Shown: one piece after another, positions 12,695 to 55,956 of the stretch
Position numbering within the stretch: the stretch's first letter is position 1
Layout of the letters: each line of letters starts with the position of its first letter
Origin: Escherichia phage KKP 3954
Sequence record: OR067838.1
Direction: 5' to 3' (one strand)
Length of the DNA: 64,000 nucleotides
Notes under the pieces: model-generated
The model's input: the letters and a program-made list of their open reading frames with translations, nothing else
Told to the model about the DNA's origin: nothing
Database searches by the model: none
Program-made: the position numbers and the translations under genes

Positions 12695-12870
12695 TTTTTC
12701 ATACCTTCTAAGACTTTAGCTTGCCCGTCTTGAAAAGCTTTCATCAGAACTATCTTAAGATTGACTTCCAAACGTTCTTCATCCTCTTTATAACAATCCA
12801 ACACTGCTTTAAGTTCATCATAGTGGTTCAGAATAGGTTTAAAGATTTCATGATCTGCTAAACGTGCCAT
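12691..12870 (-). CDS. Hypothetical protein (about 59 aa)
   Basis: ORF track 12691..12906; start moved to ATG 12870 with SD AAGGAG. Confidence 0.5.
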   Translation of the reverse strand: MARLADHEIFKPILNHYDELKAVLDCYKEDEERLEVNLKIVLMKAFQDGQAKVLEGMKK

Positions 12871-12883
12871 AGTTTCTCCTTTG

Positions 12884-13249
12884 TTAATCCATCCACCAGT
12901 AGCCATAAACTGCGTCTGCGTCGATGAGTTTGTGTTTGTTGTTCCGCATGTAGTCTAAGATAAGTAGACGTTTATTGTATCTAGAGAGATTATGACCCTC
13001 TTTTCCGCCATAGTCAAAATATTTTGCAAGATCTTTACACTCAAACAAAATCAGTTCGGGAGTTTCTTCACACTGGTCTGTCTGGTACACTTGACGAATG
13101 ATCATGTATACATCGTCGTCTTCCGCTAAATGCTCTACTGGTCCACATCCAGCAGGAACAAATTCATAGTCCCATCTGATCAGATGTTTCTCTACTGCTT
13201 CAAAGAAGTCCATTCTTTCGTTGCGCATAATTTGAACGTCAACTAACAT
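12884..13249 (-). CDS. Hypothetical protein
   Basis: ORF track; ATG 13249 with SD AGGAGGA; contains an in-frame GTATAC at 13106-13111 with no break. Confidence 0.55.
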   Translation of the reverse strand: MLVDVQIMRNERMDFFEAVEKHLIRWDYEFVPAGCGPVEHLAEDDDVYMIIRQVYQTDQCEETPELILFECKDLAKYFDYGGKEGHNLSRYNKRLLILDYMRNNKHKLIDADAVYGYWWMD

Positions 13250-14234
13250 GTTTCCTCCTGTAATGTTCCACCATAAAGTTTATAAATGTTTTGTATTGAG
13301 GCCATGCAAGATAACTCTACTGTTTCTGTGTAGCCATCTGGCATAGAATATTTGCTCACTGCTTCCGTGTGAAGGACACGCTTACAACGCTTTTCTGCAT
13401 CTTTGCATTGCTTCACAGTAGGGAAGTGCCACACTTGGCTCTGTTTCATAGTAAACACATTATGACTATTTTGTTCTTTGATACGGCGATCACTACTATT
13501 GGCAATACCAAACTTCAAAGCACAGAGAAGATTTTGTTCATCGTAGATATAGTTGATGTATGCCTGTTGTTGTGTATGCCCTTTACACTGCGGACAACCA
13601 CGCCCCTTATGTAATAAGTGGTCAGCATTCCCTATTTGCTCCCCGTGATCCTTACATCCATATTTAAACTCTCCTGTTGAGGAAGGTTTACTAATCCACT
13701 CCATCCAGATATATCCTTTACTTTCTAAACCTTTTCTCACCTTGTAAGTGATCTGATCTTTTGTGTAACGGTAAACTCTAGTATACAACGACAAGGGATA
13801 ATCCCTTTTTTAAGATCGTTCCCTGCAATGTAAAATTTACCATCACACACTCCTGCTTGTACGTATTCATCATGAGAACAAACAGGACATTCAACCATCC
13901 AGAGAATATGACTCCCTTTACGTTTGCCTGTATTGGTGAAAATAGTACCAGGTTTAAACTTTCCTGTGTTAATGAAATCTTTTATGTGCTGATCGTCTGT
14001 CTTACCTCCTTTCCCAACTCCTTTCCCAATTGCACAGACAGGACAACCAGCACGACCAGTTTTAAAGTTTTTAAATGTTGTAGTGTTCCATTCATGAGCA
14101 TACTGACAACGATTGATCATTTTCGTGTGTTGTCCTGTAAACGGCTCAACAATTCCAATAATCTCAATCCCTTTAGCAGCAGCAATAGGTTGACACTCTT
14201 CAATATATTGTTCAATACTCTTCTTTACTGGCAT
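13243..14234 (-). CDS. Zn-finger plus T5orf172 (MUG113-like) domain protein; split into track ORFs 13737..14243 and 13243..13794 by an apparent 1-nt deletion at GTATAC 13781-13786
   Basis: N-terminal CxxC pairs; C-terminal LKFGIANSSDRRIKEQN resembles the T5orf172 core; the two ORFs join after a -1 shift inside the overlap. Confidence 0.45.
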
Positions 14235-30961: not shown

Positions 30962-30990
30962 TCAAACTCAAATTTTTGCAAATAAATTTG

Positions 30991-31782
30991 ATGACACTGG
31001 AAACTGCTACTTTTGATATCAAAGATTATTCAAAATTGAAATTTGGTAGTAACCAAGCTGCGCGTCGTATGGGTAAAGAATTGGCACTTCAGTTTTTTGC
31101 TCAAGTGGCAATGAAACATATTGGGGAACAATTTGTTATCATTCCTTCTCCTTATAACCATGTGCATAATGCTGCAACAATGATGACAGATCATTTTATT
31201 AATTACTTTAATATGTTGCAAGCACAATATGATCAAGGTCGTTCAGCAGAACTGGATATTATTCATCGTAAAGTTAGCTATATCAACGATTATGGTTTCT
31301 TGGATAAAGCTAGTCGTAAGAAACTTATTGATGGGGATACATTCTACTGCAACAAAGAATTCTGGGGTGATAAGAAGCTTGTGTTCATTGATGATGTAAA
31401 TATCACTGGAACTCATGAAGACAAACTAATTGAGATTCTTGATGAAAATCAAGTTAAAAATGATGTTTACTTCTTGTATTTTGCAAAATATGAAGGTAAT
31501 CAAGCAGATACCGAAGCTAAGCTGAATTTTAACTATATTAATACACCAGAAGCGTTTGTTAAAATGATTAATGAAGAACGTGATGCACAGTGTCTTGTTC
31601 GTCCTATTAAGTATCTTATGGGCCAAAATCATGAAGACTTCAAAATCATTCTTAGCCAATTGCCACACTACTATGTGGAACAACTTTTCTTCGGCTGTTT
31701 AGCTGAAGGCTACAATCGAATTGCAAAGTATGCTGAAAACTTTGAGTTCTTGGATCGCTACACAAAACAACATATTCTGTAA
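30991..31782 (+). CDS. Phosphoribosyltransferase (PRTase type I)-like protein
   Basis: PRPP-binding motif KKLVFIDDVNITGTHEDKL; start ATG 30991 or TTG 30976. Confidence 0.5.
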   Translation: MTLETATFDIKDYSKLKFGSNQAARRMGKELALQFFAQVAMKHIGEQFVIIPSPYNHVHNAATMMTDHFINYFNMLQAQYDQGRSAELDIIHRKVSYINDYGFLDKASRKKLIDGDTFYCNKEFWGDKKLVFIDDVNITGTHEDKLIEILDENQVKNDVYFLYFAKYEGNQADTEAKLNFNYINTPEAFVKMINEERDAQCLVRPIKYLMGQNHEDFKIILSQLPHYYVEQLFFGCLAEGYNRIAKYAENFEFLDRYTKQHIL

Positions 31783-31795
31783 TAAGGAGCTAAAA

Positions 31796-32269
31796 ATGCT
31801 TAAAATGAAAACAGGTAATCTTATTGATGCCGCTAAAGCAGGTGAAGTAACTGTTATCGCTCATTGTTGCAATTGTATGTGTAATATGGGGGCAGGTATT
31901 GCCCCACAAATCAAACGAGCATTTCCTTACGCATATGCAGCAGACTTAGACACAATGGCTGGTGATCAAAGTAAACTAGGTTGTTTTAGTTTAGGGGTGC
32001 CAGACGAACAATCAGACCCTTTGGTATATAATCTATACGGGCAATACCGTTACGGATACAATGCTAAAGGTCGTCAGTTGGACTATGATGCACTTTACGA
32101 TGCACTAATAGCTATGGCTAATGATTTGCTTCTCCGTGACCAAAAATGTAAGATCGGCTTACCTATGATTGGCGCTGGACATGCTGGAGGTAATTGGGCT
32201 ATCATCCAAGTGATGATTGAAGAAACTTTAGTAAAAACAGGTCACGATGTGACTATTTATAAACTTTAA
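31796..32269 (+). CDS. Macro-domain protein (ADP-ribose binding/processing)
   Basis: VIAHCCNCMCNMGAGIA and GLPMIGAGHAGGNW blocks fit the macro-domain Gly-rich loops; SD AAGGAG. Confidence 0.55.
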   Translation: MLKMKTGNLIDAAKAGEVTVIAHCCNCMCNMGAGIAPQIKRAFPYAYAADLDTMAGDQSKLGCFSLGVPDEQSDPLVYNLYGQYRYGYNAKGRQLDYDALYDALIAMANDLLLRDQKCKIGLPMIGAGHAGGNWAIIQVMIEETLVKTGHDVTIYKL

Positions 32270-32584: not shown

Positions 32585-33559
32585 ATGCAACTTGGTTTCC
32601 CAATCATTGATGTAGTTGTTTTAGTTGGTATTTTAGCATTGTCTATTGGTATCGATTTCTTTGGTCATAAAGAGAATAAAGAAATTGGAATTAAATCTGC
32701 TTTGCTTTGGTCTGTTTTTTGGATTGCTTTAGCTTTAGGATATTACGCATTCATTTGGGTAGAACATGGTAAAGAGTTTGCCGCGCTTTTCCTAAGTGGC
32801 TATGTGTTGGAAAAGAGTCTTTCTGTAGATAACCTAATGGTGTTCATGGCAATTTTTGCAAGCTTTGGAATTAAGAGCACACATCTCCAACATAAGATTT
32901 TACTTTGGGGGATTGCAGGAGCCATTGTCTTCCGAGGTATTTTTGTTGCAGCAGGCACCGCTTTGTTTAACCTTCATTGGTCGGTCCAAGTGTTGTTCGG
33001 TTTGATTGTAGCTTGGTCTGCCGTGGCTATCATCAAAGGTGGTGATGAAGAAGAGGATATCGATTACTCTAAACATTGGGCTGTTCGTTTAGTAGGTAAA
33101 GTTCTGCCTGTGCACAATGCACTGGATGGTGAAAAGTTCATCACCATTAAGAATGGTATTAAATATGCAACTCCTGCTCTTCTTTGTGTGTTTGTTATTG
33201 AGCTTACAGATATTGTCTTCTCTTTTGATTCAGTTCCGGCTGTGATCGGTGTGACACAAGAACCTGTGCTAGTTTATTCTGCAATGCTGATGGCTGTTCT
33301 TGGTTTACGTGCACTTTTCTTTGTGTTAAGTGTAGCTGTGAAATATCTGGTTCACTTAGAGAAAGCTGTTGCTGTGGTTCTGGTGTTTGTTGGTGCTAAA
33401 CTTATGTATCACCCGTTCGGTGAAACACTTCATGCCAAGTGGTCATTCCTCCCGCATGATATTTCCCCTAACGTAAGTCTGATGATTGTTCTAGGCACAT
33501 TAGCTCTTGGTGTTATTGCAAGCTTTATCTTCCCTGAAAAAGAAGAAGCTGCTGTTTAA
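32585..33559 (+). CDS. terC: TerC-family integral membrane protein
   Basis: 324 aa, multi-TM; conserved LSVDNLMVFMAIF and ELTDIVFSFDSVPAV blocks. Confidence 0.7.
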   Translation: MQLGFPIIDVVVLVGILALSIGIDFFGHKENKEIGIKSALLWSVFWIALALGYYAFIWVEHGKEFAALFLSGYVLEKSLSVDNLMVFMAIFASFGIKSTHLQHKILLWGIAGAIVFRGIFVAAGTALFNLHWSVQVLFGLIVAWSAVAIIKGGDEEEDIDYSKHWAVRLVGKVLPVHNALDGEKFITIKNGIKYATPALLCVFVIELTDIVFSFDSVPAVIGVTQEPVLVYSAMLMAVLGLRALFFVLSVAVKYLVHLEKAVAVVLVFVGAKLMYHPFGETLHAKWSFLPHDISPNVSLMIVLGTLALGVIASFIFPEKEEAAV

Positions 33560-35185: not shown

Positions 35186-35776
35186 ATGTATACCGAGAGA
35201 GACTTGCAACTCTTGTGGTGGGAAGTGATGCAGGAAATAAAAGAAGATTTTCCTGTTTACTACAACATGTTACGTGAAGCAGGATATAAAGCTTGTGTTA
35301 GAAACAAAGTGAATAACTCTTTCGGTTGGTGCAACTACCGAGATAAAATTGTTGTTGTAAATTGGCACTTGCATAAGAACTCTACAAGAGATATGATCGT
35401 GGATACAATGAAGCACGAAATTGCTCATGCTATTGATGGTTGTATGGGTAAGTTTAGTCGGCACGGTGCTCATTGGCAAAAACTGGCAGCAGAATTAGGG
35501 GCTAATCCTAAAGCCACTTCCAAAGAGCCGTTGAACCACGAATATAAATATGTTCTTGTTCTGGTAGATAGGTTTGCGACAAGATGTGTTAGAGGTTATA
35601 ATCGTAAACCTAATCGCATGTACCCAGGTAAGCAACCTAATATGTGGTTGAAATCAGATAAAGAAGGGACCGAAGGAAAATTATGGTTGTATAAATGGGA
35701 CGATTGGGTTAAAGTAGCTAAAGAATACGGTGTTTCACCATATATAAGAGATGCAGAAGAGGAGAATGAAGAATGA
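35186..35776 (+). CDS. SprT-like zinc metalloprotease-domain protein
   Basis: HEIAHAI (HExxH) followed by HGAHW, as in SprT-like domains. Confidence 0.55.
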   Translation: MYTERDLQLLWWEVMQEIKEDFPVYYNMLREAGYKACVRNKVNNSFGWCNYRDKIVVVNWHLHKNSTRDMIVDTMKHEIAHAIDGCMGKFSRHGAHWQKLAAELGANPKATSKEPLNHEYKYVLVLVDRFATRCVRGYNRKPNRMYPGKQPNMWLKSDKEGTEGKLWLYKWDDWVKVAKEYGVSPYIRDAEEENEE

Positions 35777-36885
35777 CAAGTCCATTTTTAAAAGCAGCTA
35801 CTGGTGGTCAGAAGAAGCCTGAAATGAGCGTATTTGCTGCAACAACAGATGCAAGTAAATCTGTATTCGCTCCAAGCGTGTTAGATGCCAGTCCTGTTTA
35901 TGCACCAGCGGCACCGCAAGAAGTTCCAGTTTTGCCTTCTATGACCCGACAAGAGATCGAAGAGATTGGGGCAGAGGCAGGAACAACCTTGCGTTCCTTG
36001 AATGCCGAGGTATTAAAACATCAACGTAGTAATCAAGGAGATCAGATGAGTGAACGACTCACAGCTTTGATTAAACAGGCAAAACAACTTGATCCAAACT
36101 CTATTAAACAAAGCAAAGGTATTACTAAACTCATTAAAAAAGTTATGGGTATGAAAGAAGACCTGTTTGGGGAGTTTGATAATGTTAATAACCGTATTGA
36201 AGAGTTGGTAAAGAACCTTCAAATGGATATTCGCAAAGAAGAAGATTCCTTGGTATATCTTGAAAAGCTACATCAAGCTATTGGACAATATGCCGCAAGT
36301 TTGAACCGAGATATGCAGCTTCTAACAGCAACCTACGAAAAAGAAGAACAAGCTTTGGCTGCTCTTCCAGAAGATGCGGTAGAACAGCGACAAGTGATCC
36401 GAGATACTTTGGATCTTCTGGAGATTCGTATTGCGGATTTAAAAGCATTGCGCCTACTGTGTGTCCAAATGGGACCACGTGTGCAAGGTATGCAAAAAGT
36501 TTCTGCAAGCTTAATGCGATCTGCGCGTAACATAGTAAATAATGTTATTCCTGCTTACTCTGCTAACTTCTCAATGTATATTGAGAGCTTGCGTCAAATG
36601 AAAGCCGCAGAGACGCAGAATAACGTTCTTGATGAATTTAACCTGGCAATTAAACTGGGTAGCGATCTTGCCACACAGAATCAGATCGAAGCAGCAGCAC
36701 TGGCTAACCGTCAAGTGTTGGATATTGAAACTCTGCGTCACGATCAGGAAAACTTGGTTAAGATGTTGGAAGAAACTAACCGCATCAATACGGAAGCCCG
36801 TGCTGCTCGTGTTGATTATATTAATGAAGTTCAATCTCTGGAAGACGGGATGGTAGCTGCTGTGAAACGAGGGCTTGGTAAATGA
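35773..36885 (+). CDS. TelA-like (toxic anion resistance family) protein
   Basis: 370 aa, long predicted coiled coils; size and Ter-cluster context fit TelA; assignment from context and composition rather than a sharp motif. Confidence 0.45.
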   Translation: MTSPFLKAATGGQKKPEMSVFAATTDASKSVFAPSVLDASPVYAPAAPQEVPVLPSMTRQEIEEIGAEAGTTLRSLNAEVLKHQRSNQGDQMSERLTALIKQAKQLDPNSIKQSKGITKLIKKVMGMKEDLFGEFDNVNNRIEELVKNLQMDIRKEEDSLVYLEKLHQAIGQYAASLNRDMQLLTATYEKEEQALAALPEDAVEQRQVIRDTLDLLEIRIADLKALRLLCVQMGPRVQGMQKVSASLMRSARNIVNNVIPAYSANFSMYIESLRQMKAAETQNNVLDEFNLAIKLGSDLATQNQIEAAALANRQVLDIETLRHDQENLVKMLEETNRINTEARAARVDYINEVQSLEDGMVAAVKRGLGK

Positions 36886-37251: not shown

Positions 37252-37447
37252 CTACGATAACGATCCTAATATTATCCAGTTAACCCGACAAGAACTGATC
37301 ACAATCATTGAAGATGCTTTTATTGATGGCTGGAATACACAAGATAATGACTGGGGTGGACCTGAAGCTTTTCTAGAACATCATAAAGCGTATGGAGAAT
37401 TTTGCGAAACCACTGTAGCTCTTGATAATCTGAAGGAGGGTTTGTAA
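37244..37447 (+). CDS. Hypothetical protein
   Basis: ORF track. Confidence 0.5.
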   Translation: MFNYDNDPNIIQLTRQELITIIEDAFIDGWNTQDNDWGGPEAFLEHHKAYGEFCETTVALDNLKEGL

Positions 37448-38010
37448 TGGGTTGTTTTAGTTTTTTGTGTAAGGAATCGGGCAAAGCTGCCCTTTCTACT
37501 TCTTTCGACGGATCACCTTGCTATCTCTTTCTTTTGAAGGATGGTGTTGTTATTGAAGAGATGTATGGCAACTATGATAGTTATGGTTGTGTTTTCTCTG
37601 GAAAGGAGGATGAAAATGGCGTTCGTGAGCGGTTCGAATGGGCTATGGATTGGGGTAAGGTTTGTGATTTAATGCATTCCTCGAATCCAAGGGACGGTAT
37701 CGCTATGGTGCTGGAAGAGTATTTTACAGGCGAGATCCCTACAGAACAATCTGACGGAGATCCTAATCAAGGTTGGGGTGATGGGGAAGAAGATCCAGAT
37801 TGTTTTTTCAGCACAGAAAAGAATAAGTTTAAACGTGTTGACAACCCTTATCACAAAGTGCATAATACTCTCATTGAAACAGAAGATAACAAGATGGAAA
37901 TTGAAGAAGATGATCCTCTTGTAACACTTCCTATAAGCGAGTTGCAAAAGATCACTAAAGAAGCTTACGATTTGGGCTTCAAAATTGGTAAAGGAGGTAT
38001 ACGTGTTTAG
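37447..38010 (+). CDS. Hypothetical protein (acidic)
   Basis: ORF track. Confidence 0.55.
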   Translation: MGCFSFLCKESGKAALSTSFDGSPCYLFLLKDGVVIEEMYGNYDSYGCVFSGKEDENGVRERFEWAMDWGKVCDLMHSSNPRDGIAMVLEEYFTGEIPTEQSDGDPNQGWGDGEEDPDCFFSTEKNKFKRVDNPYHKVHNTLIETEDNKMEIEEDDPLVTLPISELQKITKEAYDLGFKIGKGGIRV

Positions 38011-38281
38011 ATTCAATATTCAAGAAGAAAAGTGCCAGGATTTACCTATTGCTTTCGAAGATCTTGGCATAGGGGCCACATTCATGTATTATGATGCCTA
38101 TGAAGACGCAGGGTTGGATACCTACCGTAACTTGGTGTTCATTAAAAATTCCACAAACAGTGCGATCTGTATTAATGGATCACTAGCACAACGAGGCTAT
38201 ACTCATTGCATCCCACCAGATACAAATATGGTGGAAGTAGATTTAGAAGTTACCAATATTACACTTAAGAAGGAGAAATAA
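38003..38281 (+). CDS. Small protein, paralog of 39305..39574
   Basis: GTG 38003 with SD AAAGGAGG; shared blocks with its paralog (DL.IG.TF.Y, GLD, EV.L.VT.ITLK). Confidence 0.5.
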   Translation: MFRFNIQEEKCQDLPIAFEDLGIGATFMYYDAYEDAGLDTYRNLVFIKNSTNSAICINGSLAQRGYTHCIPPDTNMVEVDLEVTNITLKKEK

Positions 38282-38282
38282 T

Positions 38283-39079
38283 ATGTCCGAGAAAATCAGC
38301 CTGAAAAAACGTCAAGAAAACCTTGCTTTCTCTCTGAAAAAGAATAAGAACCTGAACGAAGGTAAGATTGTTCTTCGTGTAGCATGTGCTCTAGATATTT
38401 CTGGTAGTATGCATGGTCTATATACTCGTGGGGTAGTGAGTGATTTTGTAGGTAAACTGCTTCCTTTTGGTATGCTGTTCGACGATAATGAACAAATTGA
38501 CATGTGGGCCTTCAATACGAGTTCTCAAGAGCTTACTCCAGCAACAGCAGACGTTTACGATGACTACGTTGGTAAATGTATGCGTAATGTTCGTATCGGA
38601 GGTGGAACAAATTACGCCCCTGTAATGGCAGATATCTACGATGAGTATTTTGGCACTGTTACCAAATATGTTACCACTAAACAAGTGGTATACAAGAGGA
38701 GGCTCCAAAGAAAGGCTTCTTTAATCGTCTGCTTGGTAAAACTGAAACAGTATCGGTAGAGCGTGAAAAAGTTGTAGCTGTATCTGAACCAGGTGCTGAT
38801 GTTACTCCTGGCGTTGTATTCTTCCAGACAGACGGTGAGAATGGTGATCCTAGTGCTGTTCGTCGTCTTATTGAAGAGAATAAGAATAAGCCTATCTATT
38901 GGTTCATGGTTGGCGTTGGTAATGAGAAGTTCAGCTTCCTGAAAGAACTGGCAAATGCTTATGACAATGTTGGTTTTATTGGCATTAAAGATTTAGACTT
39001 GACAGATTCAGAGCTTTATGACAAACTCTTATCTGAAGAGTTCGGAGAGTGGGTTGTTAAAGTAGGTGCTAAAAAATGA
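38283..39079 (+). CDS. von Willebrand factor A (vWA) domain protein, TerY-like; split by an apparent 1-nt deletion at GTATAC 38688-38693
   Basis: MIDAS motif DISGSM in the N-terminal part (track ORF 38283..38759); vWA C-terminal half (VVFFQTDGENGD...WFMVGVGNEKF) continues in the -1 frame to a stop at 39077-39079. Confidence 0.6.
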
Positions 39080-39324
39080 TCGACGAGCTTGCCTCTCAAG
39101 TCGTAGAAAATTATTGGCGCGAGAGAGAAGCTTTCATTATGCGCAGTCTCAAAGAATATTTCATTGGGACTGTGAGGATGGAAGATATTGTAAGTAGAGT
39201 AGAGATTCATGTATGGCCTGATTATGAAGAATGGGTTGACAAAGAAAATGAAAATGCTATAATTCTTCGTATATACAAACCGGAGATAACATTAGGAGGA
39301 AGAAGTGTTAAACTTCGAAATTGA
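39076..39324 (+). CDS. Hypothetical protein
   Basis: ORF track; ATGA coupling. Confidence 0.5.
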   Translation: MIDELASQVVENYWREREAFIMRSLKEYFIGTVRMEDIVSRVEIHVWPDYEEWVDKENENAIILRIYKPEITLGGRSVKLRN

Positions 39325-39574
39325 TGAGCAAAAAGTAAATAAACGATGCCTTACCATTAAAGATTTGGATGTAGGAGATACTTTCGTCTATGAAAATGCA
39401 TTTGACGAAAATGGTTTAGACCTTAGTGAAGTAATTGTTTATTTAAAAGTAGATGATGGGGAAAATGATTATTCTGCTGTAGAACTAAACCATCATGCAC
39501 AATTAGTAGCAATCCAAAACACATCTAAGCTTTTGGAAGTAGAATTGACTGTAACTGGTATTACACTTAAATAA
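39305..39574 (+). CDS. Small protein, paralog of 38003..38281
   Basis: GTG start with SD GGAGGAAGAA; paralogous to the gene preceding the vWA gene. Confidence 0.5.
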   Translation: MLNFEIDEQKVNKRCLTIKDLDVGDTFVYENAFDENGLDLSEVIVYLKVDDGENDYSAVELNHHAQLVAIQNTSKLLEVELTVTGITLK

Positions 39575-39589
39575 TAGAGGAGACAAAAG

Positions 39590-40192
39590 ATGACTGATAA
39601 AATTTCCCTGAAAAAAGGCTCTAGCGAAAAAATTTCCCTGAAGAAAGTTGCTCCGGCTCTGAAAGAACTGCGCCTGGAATTCTCTTGGAAATCTGATTCT
39701 AAACTGGATCTGGATGTAAGTGCACTGGTTTGTCGTCATAATGCCGCTGGCAATCCTGAAATGCTGTCTGCACGTCATCTGGTTTGCTATGCTAACAAGT
39801 TTGATCCTGAACGTTCTACCTTCGCTGGTGACGATGTTCGTGATGGAACTGGCAGCATGGAGCAGATTGATATTACTCTGGCTAAAATCTCTCCTGATGC
39901 ACAAGAGATTGCCTTTGTTCTGACCATTGATGATGATACAGGTCTGAAACGTTTTGGTCATGCTTCTGAAGGTATGCTTAAAATCTTCGACTCCGAGCGC
40001 AATGTGGAAATTCTGGATTTTGACTTCCTGGCTCCTGAAGTAGCTGGCAACACAATCTGCCACGTGGCTTCCTTGGTTCGTGAAGATGGGGAATGGAAAC
40101 TGAAAGCATATGGTGTAGGTAAAGCTGGTCTGGATATTTGCGATGTGGTGATGGCCTTCGGTGGTAAAAAAGAATGGTATGAATGTCCATAA
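39590..40192 (+). CDS. terD: TerD-domain protein
   Basis: 200 aa; N-terminal ISLKKG..ISLKK and LDLDVSAL blocks and overall pattern match the TerD/TerE/TerZ family. Confidence 0.75.
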   Translation: MTDKISLKKGSSEKISLKKVAPALKELRLEFSWKSDSKLDLDVSALVCRHNAAGNPEMLSARHLVCYANKFDPERSTFAGDDVRDGTGSMEQIDITLAKISPDAQEIAFVLTIDDDTGLKRFGHASEGMLKIFDSERNVEILDFDFLAPEVAGNTICHVASLVREDGEWKLKAYGVGKAGLDICDVVMAFGGKKEWYECP

Positions 40193-40210
40193 TAATTAAC
40201 AAATGATTTT

Positions 40211-40230
40211 GAGGGGGAGAAATCCCCCTC
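40211..40230 (+). terminator. GC hairpin after the TerD gene (possible weak terminator; no clear T-run)
   Basis: GAGGGGGAGAAATCCCCCTC inverted repeat. Confidence 0.3.
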
Positions 40231-40291
40231 TTGCAATAAAGCCTCTATCGTGTTATACTAGAAGTTCGTTAACTTAAAAAGGAGGCAAAAT

Positions 40292-40813
40292 TTGCTGATA
40301 AAAAACTTTGTAACAGTTGCGTTACTATCCTTAACTGCTTTTACATTTACACCTGTTGTGGCGAAAGCCGAAGCTGCAAACGTAAAAACCGCTAAAGTAG
40401 TTCACAAATATACAAAGCAATATAATGATAAAATTCTATTAGCTTGTGCAATTTACGCAGAAGGTCGCGGTCTGGGTAAAAAGGGAATGAATGCCGTTGG
40501 GAATGTGGTAATCAATAGAAGAAATGATGCCTACTTTCCTAACACAGTCAGAGGAGTCTTGTTCCAGAAAGGGCAATTCTCATATGCGAAAACTTTTAAC
40601 GTAACAGAGAAAGATAAGTGGCAGGAAGCAAAAGCAATAGCGGAGCGTTTACTTTATTTAGAGAAACATTTTCCTGAATTGCGGTCTGTTTTAGATGTTA
40701 CTAAAGGTGCTCTATACTTCAAGAAGCGGAATATAAAGACACACTGGGAGCGTGATATGCGTCTTGTTTATCGAGATAAAGTGCATGGTTTCTATCTACC
40801 AAAGGGGAGTTAA
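40292..40813 (+). CDS. Secreted cell-wall hydrolase, SleB/Hydrolase_2-like (lysin candidate)
   Basis: Signal peptide; ILLACAIYAEGRG..GMNAVGNVVINR..FPNTVRGVLFQKGQFS matches the cell-wall hydrolase fold. Confidence 0.6.
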   Translation: MLIKNFVTVALLSLTAFTFTPVVAKAEAANVKTAKVVHKYTKQYNDKILLACAIYAEGRGLGKKGMNAVGNVVINRRNDAYFPNTVRGVLFQKGQFSYAKTFNVTEKDKWQEAKAIAERLLYLEKHFPELRSVLDVTKGALYFKKRNIKTHWERDMRLVYRDKVHGFYLPKGS

Positions 40814-43714: not shown

Positions 43715-44659
43715 ATGGGACAAATAATTCTTGACAATCGTAACGGAATCAATTATAGTGTCTGCGATTTCCATAGGGTAGTGCTGCCTTACTCAAGGCA
43801 GTTCTCTTCACAACCTAAACACAACGTTTTCGTTTTTAACGGAGTGCCAACAAAAGGTAAAGAGGGCTTTTTAGCCCTTAAAAACCTAGGCTTTAAAATG
43901 GTTATGGATTTGGATGACTCTTTAGTTATTCCAAAAGGACACATGTTAGAAGGTATTTTTGAATCCGGTATTCGTGAACATTTAAAATGGTTTTTAGAGC
44001 ACAGTGATCTTGTTACAACTACGACACCTGCCTTGCAAGTTGAACTTTCACAATACAATGATAATGTGCACATAATCCCTAATGGACTTCCTTATGATGA
44101 AGGTCAATTTGTGTTGACCCGTGATCGCTACTCCAAAACTCCATTAGTCTGGGCTGGAAGTGAAACACATAAACAAGATTTGGCTATCTTACCCGATTTT
44201 GGTAAAGATCTTACAATATGTGGTTTTCGTAGGGATTCTGAAGTTTTAAGTAGTCGTGAATGGTCTTTAATCAGAGAAAATGTAGCACCAACTTGTGTTT
44301 ATGAAGGTGTAAGACCATATGCCAACTACATGGAATCTTACGATGGTCATCAAATCAGTCTTGCACCATTGATCGATAACGTGTTTAATAATGCAAAAAG
44401 CAATCTTAAAATTCTTGAGGCAGGTGCTAAGGGTTTACCTTTAATCTGCTCTCCTCGTGAGAATTATCATACACAAGAGTTTAAAGATTTGTTATTCTTT
44501 GCTGAAACACCTTCCGAGTGGAAAGATATTACGGAATACTTATTAAGTGCTCCCGATGTTTGCATGGAGAAAGGATTAGCATTAGCTAAGTATGTCAGGA
44601 CTCATTATCACATTGATGTGTTGAATGAGCGTCGTAGACTTTTATTTGAGGAGCTATAA
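43715..44659 (+). CDS. Glycosyltransferase-like protein, tandem paralog B
   Basis: About 35-40 percent identical to the preceding gene by eye (NNAKSNLKILEAGAKGLPLICS). Confidence 0.5.
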   Translation: MGQIILDNRNGINYSVCDFHRVVLPYSRQFSSQPKHNVFVFNGVPTKGKEGFLALKNLGFKMVMDLDDSLVIPKGHMLEGIFESGIREHLKWFLEHSDLVTTTTPALQVELSQYNDNVHIIPNGLPYDEGQFVLTRDRYSKTPLVWAGSETHKQDLAILPDFGKDLTICGFRRDSEVLSSREWSLIRENVAPTCVYEGVRPYANYMESYDGHQISLAPLIDNVFNNAKSNLKILEAGAKGLPLICSPRENYHTQEFKDLLFFAETPSEWKDITEYLLSAPDVCMEKGLALAKYVRTHYHIDVLNERRRLLFEEL

Positions 44660-46758: not shown

Positions 46759-46787
46759 TTGACAACTTTGCGGAAGGGACTTATACT
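46759..46787 (+). promoter_or_regulatory. Sigma70-like promoter (TTGACA, 17 nt spacer, TATACT)
   Basis: Hexamers seen directly; -10 context GGGACTTATACT as at 11350-11378. Confidence 0.55.
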
Positions 46788-53280: not shown

Positions 53281-55956
53281 TTAGTCGTAATATTTCAAAC
53301 CTGTAATGAACTTCGATCCCCAATCCGCACTTGCGGCGGTGAACGTCAACATCCAAGTTGTAGCTGTACCAGTGAAGACCTCTCGTTGCACAATACCATC
53401 AGTGTGGTAAATGTCCACGCCAGTATGTCCATTCTTAGGAATAGTGAAGGTAACAGCACTGGTAGTGTCTCGTGCATAAGAACAAACAAATGGTGTCCCC
53501 GCCCAAACTGGATTTGTCATATCCCCCATCTCAAGCTGTGGAACCCAAGCAATAAGACCTGCCATACCATCTCCTGCGAAAGTGTCTGATCCACTTGCAT
53601 TCAAAGCTATAATCTCATAGGTTATAGATGCTTGTTTGGCAACTGTCACTTTGTGTAGAATTACACGATACCAACCATTCCCCATATCGATTATGTTTGC
53701 ATCTGCACCTGTAAATGTTCCAGCTACAAGATCATAAGTCCCTTCGTTAATCTCATCTCCTGAAGTCAATTTGAGTTTCACTTTAGTGATCCCATCTGGC
53801 TTCAAGAATACGGATGCCGCCCAGTGCTTACCTGCTGTAATATCAGAAGCTGTATTCACTGCTGATAAAATATGTTGTCCTGAAGTTGTAGAAGGTGTTA
53901 ACTTGTAAGTGTTAGCCGTAGTTCCAACCGGAGAGTTGATTGTTGATGCTGTGACTGTCAAGTTCGTCTTCAACCACGGGGAAGCTGTTGTCAAGTTATT
54001 GTTGATAAAGATATGTATACGGTTGGCTGCTACAACACGTCTACCTTGTGGAGTTGTACCAACATATTCTAAAGGTGCTACGGGAGCAGAACTCTCTGTA
54101 GGTACAAGGATATCTCCAGAAGCCCTGGCATAACGGTTACTCCTGTTGACCTTTACATCCGCCGGAATAGTTTCTTGCGTCAAATCATAGTCCATCACAA
54201 TCACCACAGCATTCACTGCGAGATAAGAACTATCTTCGGCAGTTACCACACCTTGATAAGTTGCTCTACAACCGATACGACAATCCCCATCAGCAACCGC
54301 TGTAATAACGCCTGTAACGGGGTCAACTGTTGCTACCGTAGGATCATTAGAGAAATACTCAACAACCATACCAGGTAAGCTTGCTGCCCCTGTTGGCGTT
54401 ATTTCTGCTACCATTGTTTGTGTTGTTCCTACATCCATCGCAGATAAGCTAGGAGTGTAAACGCTCAATGTTGAAGCATATCCTCCAGAGGTATCTGATA
54501 AAGTTGTTCCTTCAGCGTTTAAGGCTGTCATACCTGCATCAAAACCACCTTCTGCATGGAAAGTCATTAAACCAGTAGATGATATTGTCATGTTTGCAGG
54601 GGCAGAAGAAGTGTATTTAATATTGAAAAGTTTACCTCCTTCTGGGCTAACAGAATGTGTCAACTGTTTAGTTCCACCTACAATACAAATTCCTAAAGAA
54701 TCTGTAGTTAAGCCAGTTGCCAGAACATCACCCGTAATCACGGAGCTTGCTATTGGTGTGAATTTATTATAGTTTAGACCACTATTGAACAGATACGAAG
54801 CTTTCCCATCTTTCCAAATACCGGAATAATACATATCTCCATTATAAACGAAAAAGGTTCCTTGATAACCTAATTGGTTAGTAACATCCATATTCAGCGT
54901 ATGAACGCTTGTGAGCTTGTTTATATCCCAAGAACCCACTCCTTCAGGTTTAACTGGTTTTCCCACTTGGAGTGGATCTCCGCTCGCAGAATCATACCCC
55001 AAACCTAAGTTTGCAGTGTAGTTCTTACCAATAGCCCACAAGGAATTATTGATCCCAACGAAAAAAGAGTGGCGGCTTGGTGGAAACTTCCATGTTGAGA
55101 AACCTGCTGCAAAGGTATCCAGTTTAGTGTAGGTTGTTTCTGTATTAGATCTAACATATAAGTAGTTTACCATACCCGTGCCACCGGAGGTATCTCCTAC
55201 AACTATTGTCTGGGAAACTGTATTGATGTAATCTTTGACATACACTGTTTCAGTAGCGGATATCTTGGCATTGACAAAAGCTGTTGTTGTGTTATTATTA
55301 CCTGCTAAACCTTTACTAGCTCCACAAACACGCAAGGTTCCCACATTGTTGACATAAGAGCATTGGTTGTAACCTGCATCAAAAGCAACTGCTGCACTCG
55401 TTATTTGACGAGGAGTAGAAACTTCGTTAGTAGTACTTGCACCTAAACTGCCTACTGTGTTTTGACCCGATCCATAAAGAACGCCACTATTCATTAACCA
55501 GAGAGTGTTATTATATCCTCCCTTAACCTCTTTAAGATTGGCTAAAGAGATAGTCCCCGTTATTACAGATGGAAAGCTGGTCCAAGTAGTTACACATGCA
55601 TCCATACCACCTGCTGCTATAGATCCTACCAACCCTGCTGTCAATCCTGAATATTGCCATCCCCCACTATTAGTTTTAATAATAAAACAACGATCTGCGG
55701 TAAACACATCCGCTACTACAGTAGAAGCTAAGTAGAAATTATTGAATCGTGCACTACGAGTTCCATCTGCAATCTCACCAAAAAGGTTTGCACCTTGAGT
55801 AAACAATCTACCATCGTTAAGCAAAATTGCTAAACTACTGTTAGAATTACCAGCATTGTCTGGGTAATCTAAAGTGATTACTTTTTTAACAATACCCGCT
55901 GGCAGAGGAACGACACCAGTACTGGTCATAATAGTAAATATTGGAATTGGAAACAT
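53281..55956 (-). CDS. Large tail fiber / receptor-binding protein (891 aa)
   Basis: ORF track; Gly/Thr/Ser/Asn/Val-rich beta-rich composition; tail-gene context; SD GGAGGG; in-frame GTATAC at 54015 with no break. Confidence 0.55.
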   Translation of the reverse strand: MFPIPIFTIMTSTGVVPLPAGIVKKVITLDYPDNAGNSNSSLAILLNDGRLFTQGANLFGEIADGTRSARFNNFYLASTVVADVFTADRCFIIKTNSGGWQYSGLTAGLVGSIAAGGMDACVTTWTSFPSVITGTISLANLKEVKGGYNNTLWLMNSGVLYGSGQNTVGSLGASTTNEVSTPRQITSAAVAFDAGYNQCSYVNNVGTLRVCGASKGLAGNNNTTTAFVNAKISATETVYVKDYINTVSQTIVVGDTSGGTGMVNYLYVRSNTETTYTKLDTFAAGFSTWKFPPSRHSFFVGINNSLWAIGKNYTANLGLGYDSASGDPLQVGKPVKPEGVGSWDINKLTSVHTLNMDVTNQLGYQGTFFVYNGDMYYSGIWKDGKASYLFNSGLNYNKFTPIASSVITGDVLATGLTTDSLGICIVGGTKQLTHSVSPEGGKLFNIKYTSSAPANMTISSTGLMTFHAEGGFDAGMTALNAEGTTLSDTSGGYASTLSVYTPSLSAMDVGTTQTMVAEITPTGAASLPGMVVEYFSNDPTVATVDPVTGVITAVADGDCRIGCRATYQGVVTAEDSSYLAVNAVVIVMDYDLTQETIPADVKVNRSNRYARASGDILVPTESSAPVAPLEYVGTTPQGRRVVAANRIHIFINNNLTTASPWLKTNLTVTASTINSPVGTTANTYKLTPSTTSGQHILSAVNTASDITAGKHWAASVFLKPDGITKVKLKLTSGDEINEGTYDLVAGTFTGADANIIDMGNGWYRVILHKVTVAKQASITYEIIALNASGSDTFAGDGMAGLIAWVPQLEMGDMTNPVWAGTPFVCSYARDTTSAVTFTIPKNGHTGVDIYHTDGIVQREVFTGTATTWMLTFTAASADWGSKFITGLKYYD

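Follow-up and report, generated by a model that had tools for sequence, protein, structure and literature searches.

Ter systems, built from TerC, TelA, TerD and TerF-type vWA proteins, are widespread in bacteria, plasmids and phages and are linked to resistance against tellurite, colicins and phages. We analyzed a 64,000-nucleotide stretch of the Escherichia phage KKP 3954 genome (OR067838.1; hereafter the window) that carries such a module, following up an earlier reading of the sequence alone (the original prediction) that had singled out two small genes placed before those for a TerF-like vWA protein and a TerD-domain protein. These genes, copy 1 (positions 38003-38281, plus strand; 92 amino acids (aa), isoelectric point (pI) 4.5) and copy 2 (39305-39574, plus strand; 89 aa, pI 4.3), are genuine, selected and paralogous. 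They belong to a very small family that is known only from phages, is predicted to have an SH3-like small beta-barrel fold and keeps its contact with vWA and TerD genes across diverged genomes. Our best reading is that they form an undescribed, lineage-restricted and dispensable accessory, of generic fold, to a known kind of phage module, which makes them a modest lead and not a surprising one.

Both genes are packed tightly against their neighbors. Copy 1 ends 1 nucleotide (nt) before the ATG of the vWA gene at 38283, and copy 2 ends 15 nt before the ATG of the TerD gene at 39590. Each begins on a GTG codon preceded by AGGAGG (7 nt upstream of the start in copy 1) and inside the 3' end of the gene before it, with an 8-nt overlap between copy 1 and a 187-aa open reading frame (ORF; 37447-38010) and a 20-nt overlap between copy 2 and an 82-aa ORF (39076-39324); the original prediction was correct on the starts and on the positions directly upstream of vWA and TerD. 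The longest ORF for copy 1 would begin at a TTG at 37985, and the GTG start is preferred because it fits both the annotation of relatives and the common N terminus of the homologues (M-x-x-F). Strong Shine–Dalgarno sites precede the gene in 18 of 18 homologues examined. Most of these begin with ATG, which makes the GTG start a peculiarity of the clade of the window and no trait of the family.

The claim that the two genes are clear paralogs was confirmed by an end-to-end BLASTP alignment with 28 of 89 residues identical (31%, E = 9e-14) and by comparison with shuffled controls, in which the Smith–Waterman score of 117 stood far above the shuffled mean of 25.5 ± 4.5 (z = 20.5) and was reached by 0 of 5,000 shuffles. 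Both proteins match the same PHROG family, phrog_11278, over their full length (copy 1, E = 5.2e-49, residues 1-92 of 92; copy 2, E = 3.2e-44, residues 1-89 of 92), and they are members of that family itself. Comparison with orthologues gave ratios of nonsynonymous to synonymous substitution rates (dN/dS) of 0.18-0.40 for both copies, indicating purifying selection. Related phage records carry both genes, annotated as hypothetical proteins, and a search of the six-frame translation of the window with a hidden Markov model (HMM) of the family found no third copy.

Structure prediction, which had been proposed as a check, yielded confident AlphaFold2 models from a 21-sequence alignment for copy 1 (predicted local distance difference test (pLDDT), 82.6; predicted template modeling score (pTM), 0.71) and for copy 2 (pLDDT, 84.7; pTM, 0.78). 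The order of elements is the same in both, with a short strand, a short helix and four further strands, and the first ~15 residues are of lower confidence. A BFVD model of the phAPEC8 orthologue of copy 2 superposes on the copy 1 model with a template modeling (TM) score of 0.75-0.77. With about five antiparallel strands and superposition on known SH3-like domains, both copies are predicted to be SH3-like small beta-barrels, an assignment to a fold class and not to a family. Neither protein matched Pfam, NCBIfam, PADLOC or PDB sequences, which includes the profiles of FeoA and DtxR-type SH3 domains as well as those of the core Ter families (TerD, TerB, TerC, TelA and TerF-type vWA). The idea that the small proteins are fragments or relatives of TerD or of the vWA protein was considered and rejected, with hhalign probabilities of 0.3% and 0.2%, respectively. 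All family members are acidic (pI 4.3-5.5), which argues against nucleic-acid binding and makes that role unlikely. Their sequences show no apparent signal peptide or transmembrane segment, and the proteins are therefore probably cytoplasmic. Seven positions are invariant in the family: F4, L21, G24, F27, K48, N58 and V83.

The family is uncharacterized, includes phi92 gp174 and phAPEC8 K7QLS7, and is labeled 'hypothetical protein' in all GenBank records; our literature searches returned no name, function or published description of these proteins. Orthologues 95-99% identical to the window proteins are present in about 60 Phapecoctavirus genomes. Word-indexed searches returned 22 clusters, and an exhaustive profile search of 1.84 billion representative proteins returned 21 matches at E < 1e-3, of which 2 were spurious and ~19 true members of 87-93 aa. 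The 2 spurious matches (P0034 and P0037) were long fn3 and cadherin/Ig repeat proteins in which weak per-repeat scores had summed. In GenBank, 126 phage records contain the family and are without exception of Stephanstirmvirinae type, with two copies in Phapecoctavirus genomes and one in phi92-like genomes. TerD of the window type is found in 131 Stephanstirmvirinae-type records, and the excess of five over the family corresponds to a group of Klebsiella phages. All members for which the surroundings were retrieved are on phage-like contigs.

To place these genes in context, we examined the surroundings of members in phi92, phiWec190, Klebsiella phage 05F01, DE16, Schickermooser and ten distant metagenomic relatives and then clustered the neighboring proteins; the resulting gene map comprises 12 Ter loci, 10 of them with the family, and further contigs were incomplete but concordant. 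Co-occurrence with Ter genes in other genomes, anticipated by the original prediction, was borne out: across 17 Ter-bearing loci, cultured and metagenomic, every family member lies inside the vWA–TerD segment, and a vWA gene present on the contig always has at least one copy directly adjacent. In the 10 clustered loci that hold the family, a copy always touches vWA, and in 8 of these 10 one lies directly upstream of TerD. Four arrangements were seen. Phapecoctavirus loci (the window, phiWec190 and the metagenomic relative L019) read copy 1, vWA, 82-aa ORF, copy 2, TerD; phi92 and 05F01 read copy, vWA, TerD, with no copy before TerD; five loci (L006, L008, L016, L017 and L018) have a single copy between vWA and TerD; and two (L010 and L012) have a tandem pair there (vWA, copy, copy, TerD). 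Overlaps or spacers around the family genes are at most 33 nt. The backbone of TelA, vWA, TerD and SleB is common to the loci. Between TelA and vWA, the remaining small ORFs are swapped from lineage to lineage, but the small barrel family persists. Relative to the window, the small proteins of the distant loci are 22-38% identical, compared with 46-63% for vWA and 40-54% for TerD.

An accessory role in the Ter module is the reading that best fits the contact with vWA and TerD kept across these loci, the retention of both duplicates within the segment and the tightly coupled reading frames. SH3-like barrels most often serve as interaction modules, and we favor a small adaptor or modulator with vWA and/or TerD as its binding partner. 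We therefore propose that the small barrels are lineage-specific subunits of the phage Ter module that are dispensable and act as adaptors or modulators, a reading to which we assign an even chance of being right.

Several observations weigh against such a role. Klebsiella phage phi1_175008 keeps an intact TelA–vWA–TerD set (TelA, two small ORFs, vWA, TerD, SleB), with TerD 86% and vWA 67% identical to the window type, and has no family copy; a six-frame HMM search detected no member. Caulobacter phage CcrColossus has an independent Ter cluster (TelA, vWA, a membrane protein and TerD) that also lacks the family, and the profile search of 1.84 billion representatives detected no bacterial homologue, so the same pairing was not found in bacterial ter loci. 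Together, these absences indicate that the small proteins are not required for Ter proteins generally and that even phages of the subfamily can do without them. Matches at the level of fold are generic and suggest no particular ligand, conservation falls mainly on hydrophobic residues of the core and on glycine, aspartate and asparagine in loops, and copy 1 in the window precedes a frameshifted vWA gene (see below). Finally, all positive loci belong to one syntenic phage lineage with one backbone, so the conserved adjacency may partly be inherited gene order and not functional coupling; adjacency to Ter genes held across diverged genomes, and no association was found in independent lineages beyond the shared synteny. 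Just upstream of vWA in phi1_175008, where relatives hold the small barrel gene, is a 195-nt stretch without an annotated gene (2416-2610 of that locus, L013), in which a six-frame HMM search detected no remnant of the small gene.

The main rival is accordingly that these are unrelated accessory genes held in place by synteny: fast-evolving early genes, for example for host takeover or anti-defense factors with a target in the host, that hitch-hike in an inherited position within one lineage. We rate this explanation as clearly the less probable one, though it deserves serious weight. The shared backbone on which all loci sit extends beyond the Ter genes and SleB to glycosyltransferases and a primase-helicase, the small family evolves faster than its neighbors, and unrelated phages are represented in BFVD by many comparable small barrels whose function is unknown; the loss of the small gene from phi1_175008 with retention of its Ter genes, and the Ter clusters of Caulobacter phages and bacteria that do without it, point the same way. 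Against hitch-hiking, this is the only small ORF family retained in the segment across all lineages while its small neighbors turn over, the gene has moved from one side of vWA to the other without losing contact, and its duplicates have remained in the vWA–TerD segment in two arrangements, in tandem in L010 and L012 and flanking vWA in Phapecoctavirus.

A further possibility is that the barrels bind Ca2+, another divalent metal or a nucleoside-like Ter signal, acting as a sensor or sponge. The acidity of the proteins would suit such a role, as would the PRTase_3 and Macro-domain proteins encoded in the cluster, which the Ter literature links to a nucleotide-derived signal. However, conservation reveals no clear ligand-binding site, with no conserved cluster of histidine, cysteine or aspartate and no pocket-like motif, and there is no Pfam match to FeoA or another family; lacking specific support, this explanation is improbable.

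Less probable still is the suggestion of the original prediction that the duplicated pairing reflects dedicated folding chaperones or partners, one for vWA and one for TerD. Each copy does lie directly upstream of one Ter gene in this genome, but copy number ranges from 0 to 2 and does not follow that of the clients. L008 and L016-L018 have one copy, most distant relatives having a single copy between vWA and TerD; phi92 and 05F01 also have one, the copy before vWA; and phi1_175008 and CcrColossus lack the gene. The vWA and TerD proteins of bacteria likewise do without such a partner. The one-to-one pairing thus did not hold up outside Phapecoctavirus-type loci. Chance similarity or non-coding ORFs can be dismissed, given an alignment score 20 standard deviations above shuffles, a profile family with members down to 22% identity, dN/dS below 1 and confident models for both copies.

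Returning to an accessory role in the Ter module, its history may be sketched as follows. The ancestral order would have been vWA, small barrel, TerD; a duplication in the ancestor of the Escherichia coli and Klebsiella Stephanstirmvirinae would have brought one copy to lie upstream of vWA; and later losses would have removed the copy before TerD in the phi92 and 05F01 lineages and both copies in one clade of Klebsiella phages. A neighbor-joining tree of the family, in which all copies preceding vWA group together with the Phapecoctavirus copies preceding TerD as their sister, fits this duplication and the subsequent losses, although the history is tentative because the tree draws on ~90 fast-evolving positions and is not robust.

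As for mechanism, the small barrels would share their transcripts, which are tightly packed and probably translationally coupled, with vWA and TerD, and would not be obligate folding chaperones. The metal-ion-dependent adhesion site (MIDAS) of vWA domains usually accepts an acidic side chain contributed by the ligand, and one possibility is that the conserved acidic G-L-D loop of the barrel is offered to an intact vWA MIDAS site. Alternatively, the barrel might bind the N-terminal K-I-S-L-K-K hairpin common to vWA and TerD. Either contact would tune the assembly of a sub-membrane complex of TelA, vWA and TerD, which phages may employ against membrane stress or superinfecting phages. In its most specific form, the small barrel would be a phage-specific regulatory subunit that docks on the shared hairpin or the MIDAS and controls when and where this assembly forms during infection, a proposal we consider doubtful as it stands.

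The vWA gene of the window (38283-39079, plus strand; Pfam PF10138, E = 2e-16) contains an intact MIDAS motif, D-I-S-G-S, and is split by a 2-bp insertion, with alignment showing TATA in place of TA at 38689-38692. The result is a 158-aa ORF (38283-38759) followed by an out-of-frame remainder that continues to 39079. The gene is intact, at 795 nt, in DE16, Schickermooser and phi92, and the insertion is shared by 0 of 61 matching phage records. Either an error in sequencing or a recent inactivation of the gene (pseudogenization) accounts for it. If the insertion is real, then copy 1 in the window precedes a broken partner. The vWA and TerD proteins have in common an N-terminal double motif, M-x-x-K-I-S-L-K-K ... 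S-L-K-K (38283-38345 and 39590-39650 in the window), which is also present in L002-L004, L008, L012, L013 and L015-L019, that is, in every phage examined, including those without a small barrel gene. This motif may serve both proteins as a shared element for structure or targeting.

The window belongs to Phapecoctavirus, a genus of phAPEC8-like E. coli myophages in the subfamily Stephanstirmvirinae: over 37400-40300, its sequence shares 98-99% identity with Escherichia phages of this genus, with vB_EcoM_Schickermooser as the best match, and the window TerD is 100% identical in many Phapecoctavirus records. Both small genes sit on the plus strand within an extended block of early-type genes. 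The Ter module is part of this block and reads PRTase, Macro, TerC, SprT-like, TelA, vWA, TerD and then a SleB-type hydrolase. The block begins its Ter complement with a Ter-associated phosphoribosyltransferase (PRTase_3; 30976-31782, plus strand; Pfam PF15610, E = 1.5e-41), adjoined by a Macro-domain protein (31721-32269), and continues with a TerC-family membrane protein (32585-33559, plus strand; PF03741, E = 3e-40), a SprT-like, metalloprotease-type protein (35186-35776) and a TelA-like protein (35773-36885, plus strand; PF05816, E = 3e-33). Downstream of copy 2 are the 200-aa TerD-domain protein (39590-40192, plus strand; PF02342, E = 3e-28) and its conserved 3' neighbor, a SleB-like cell-wall hydrolase (40292-40813, plus strand; PF07486, E = 1e-17) whose cluster (F4) is found in 11 of the 12 clustered loci. 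With its PRTase_3, Macro-domain and SprT-like proteins (30976-32269 and 35186-35776), the module of the window is fuller than the 'abbreviated' phage versions.

The two ORFs that overlap the small genes, both on the plus strand, are less widely distributed. The 187-aa ORF 5' of copy 1 (phrog_14928) falls in a cluster (F15) found in the window, phi92 and phiWec190 and absent from L019 and the distant loci, and its link to the small barrel family is inconsistent. A 193-aa ORF upstream of vWA in L008 was considered as its equivalent and rejected, as the two have no similarity. The 82-aa ORF between vWA and copy 2 (phrog_22387, E = 1e-57) belongs to a cluster (F16) confined to Phapecoctavirus-type loci (the window, phiWec190 and L019). 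Elsewhere in these loci, phi92 gp171 and its phi1_175008 homologue were rejected as second TerD genes, having no Pfam match to TerD. Directly after TerD in L017 is a gene with a Band_7 (SPFH) domain (2095-2574), a further membrane-scaffold type of protein in the cluster, and L008 contains a DNA polymerase A gene whose intein has an HNH-type domain (12776-13792; Pfam matches).

A perfect 12/12 match to the sigma-70 consensus with an extended -10 element (TTGACA-16-TGcTATAAT; 39236-39263, plus strand) is predicted inside the 82-aa ORF, 41 nt before copy 2, and is the only 12/12 match in the window. Its hexamers are conserved in DE16, phiWec190 and L019 while the surrounding codons differ. An 11/12 promoter-like site (TTGACA-17-CATAAT; 37838-37866, plus strand), conserved in DE16, phi92 and phiWec190, is predicted inside the 187-aa ORF, 136 nt before copy 1, and L012, L016 and L017 have a 10-11/12 site in the final part of vWA, 57-58 nt ahead of the small gene. 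The placement of such sites just before the small gene suggests that it is often transcribed together with TerD from a predicted promoter of their own. Sites matching at least 11/12 positions number 15 in the window compared with 3.0 ± 1.7 in shuffles, a five-fold enrichment that suggests many promoters for host RNA polymerase, several of them inside coding sequence. Further examples among these 15 are 43731-43759, 46759-46787 and 55271-55298 and, on the minus strand, 8797-8770, 7692-7665 and 3837-3810.

Abbreviated Ter modules borne by phages (TerC, TelA, TerF-type vWA and TerD) have been described in Caulobacter jumbo phages and 'related smaller tailed phages' (Iyer et al. 2021, PMC7824862) and likewise in Klebsiella phage phiKp34 (PMC8386662), with proposed roles in superinfection exclusion or in tolerance of stress (PMC7824862; PMC8386662). 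The window has the same core genes and adds PRTase_3; the accessible portions of these descriptions list no small barrel component, and the Caulobacter cluster we examined has none. In the bacterial ter operon, the ligand-binding components TerB and the TerD paralogues TerZ, TerA and TerE are likewise small soluble proteins, with paralogous copies adjoining in Ter clusters, but the small barrels differ from them in fold class, have no homology to TerD or vWA domains and have no detected bacterial members. Also among the closest known proteins are interaction-module barrels of the SH3-like class, such as FeoA, the C-terminal domain of DtxR/IdeR, Tudor/PWWP, domain I of EF-P, the SH3-like domain of ribosomal protein L2 and HspQ.

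If the linkage is mere synteny, then phrog_11278 is just another uncharacterized phage ORF family, and the practical value of these results would lie in the better annotation of about 130 Stephanstirmvirinae genomes. Conversely, a small protein whose gene has stayed beside those for vWA and TerD while a phage lineage diverged deeply is a candidate binding partner and could serve as a bait with which to probe Ter assembly, and should the small barrels prove to be regulatory subunits, they would offer a handle on how Ter proteins physically assemble.

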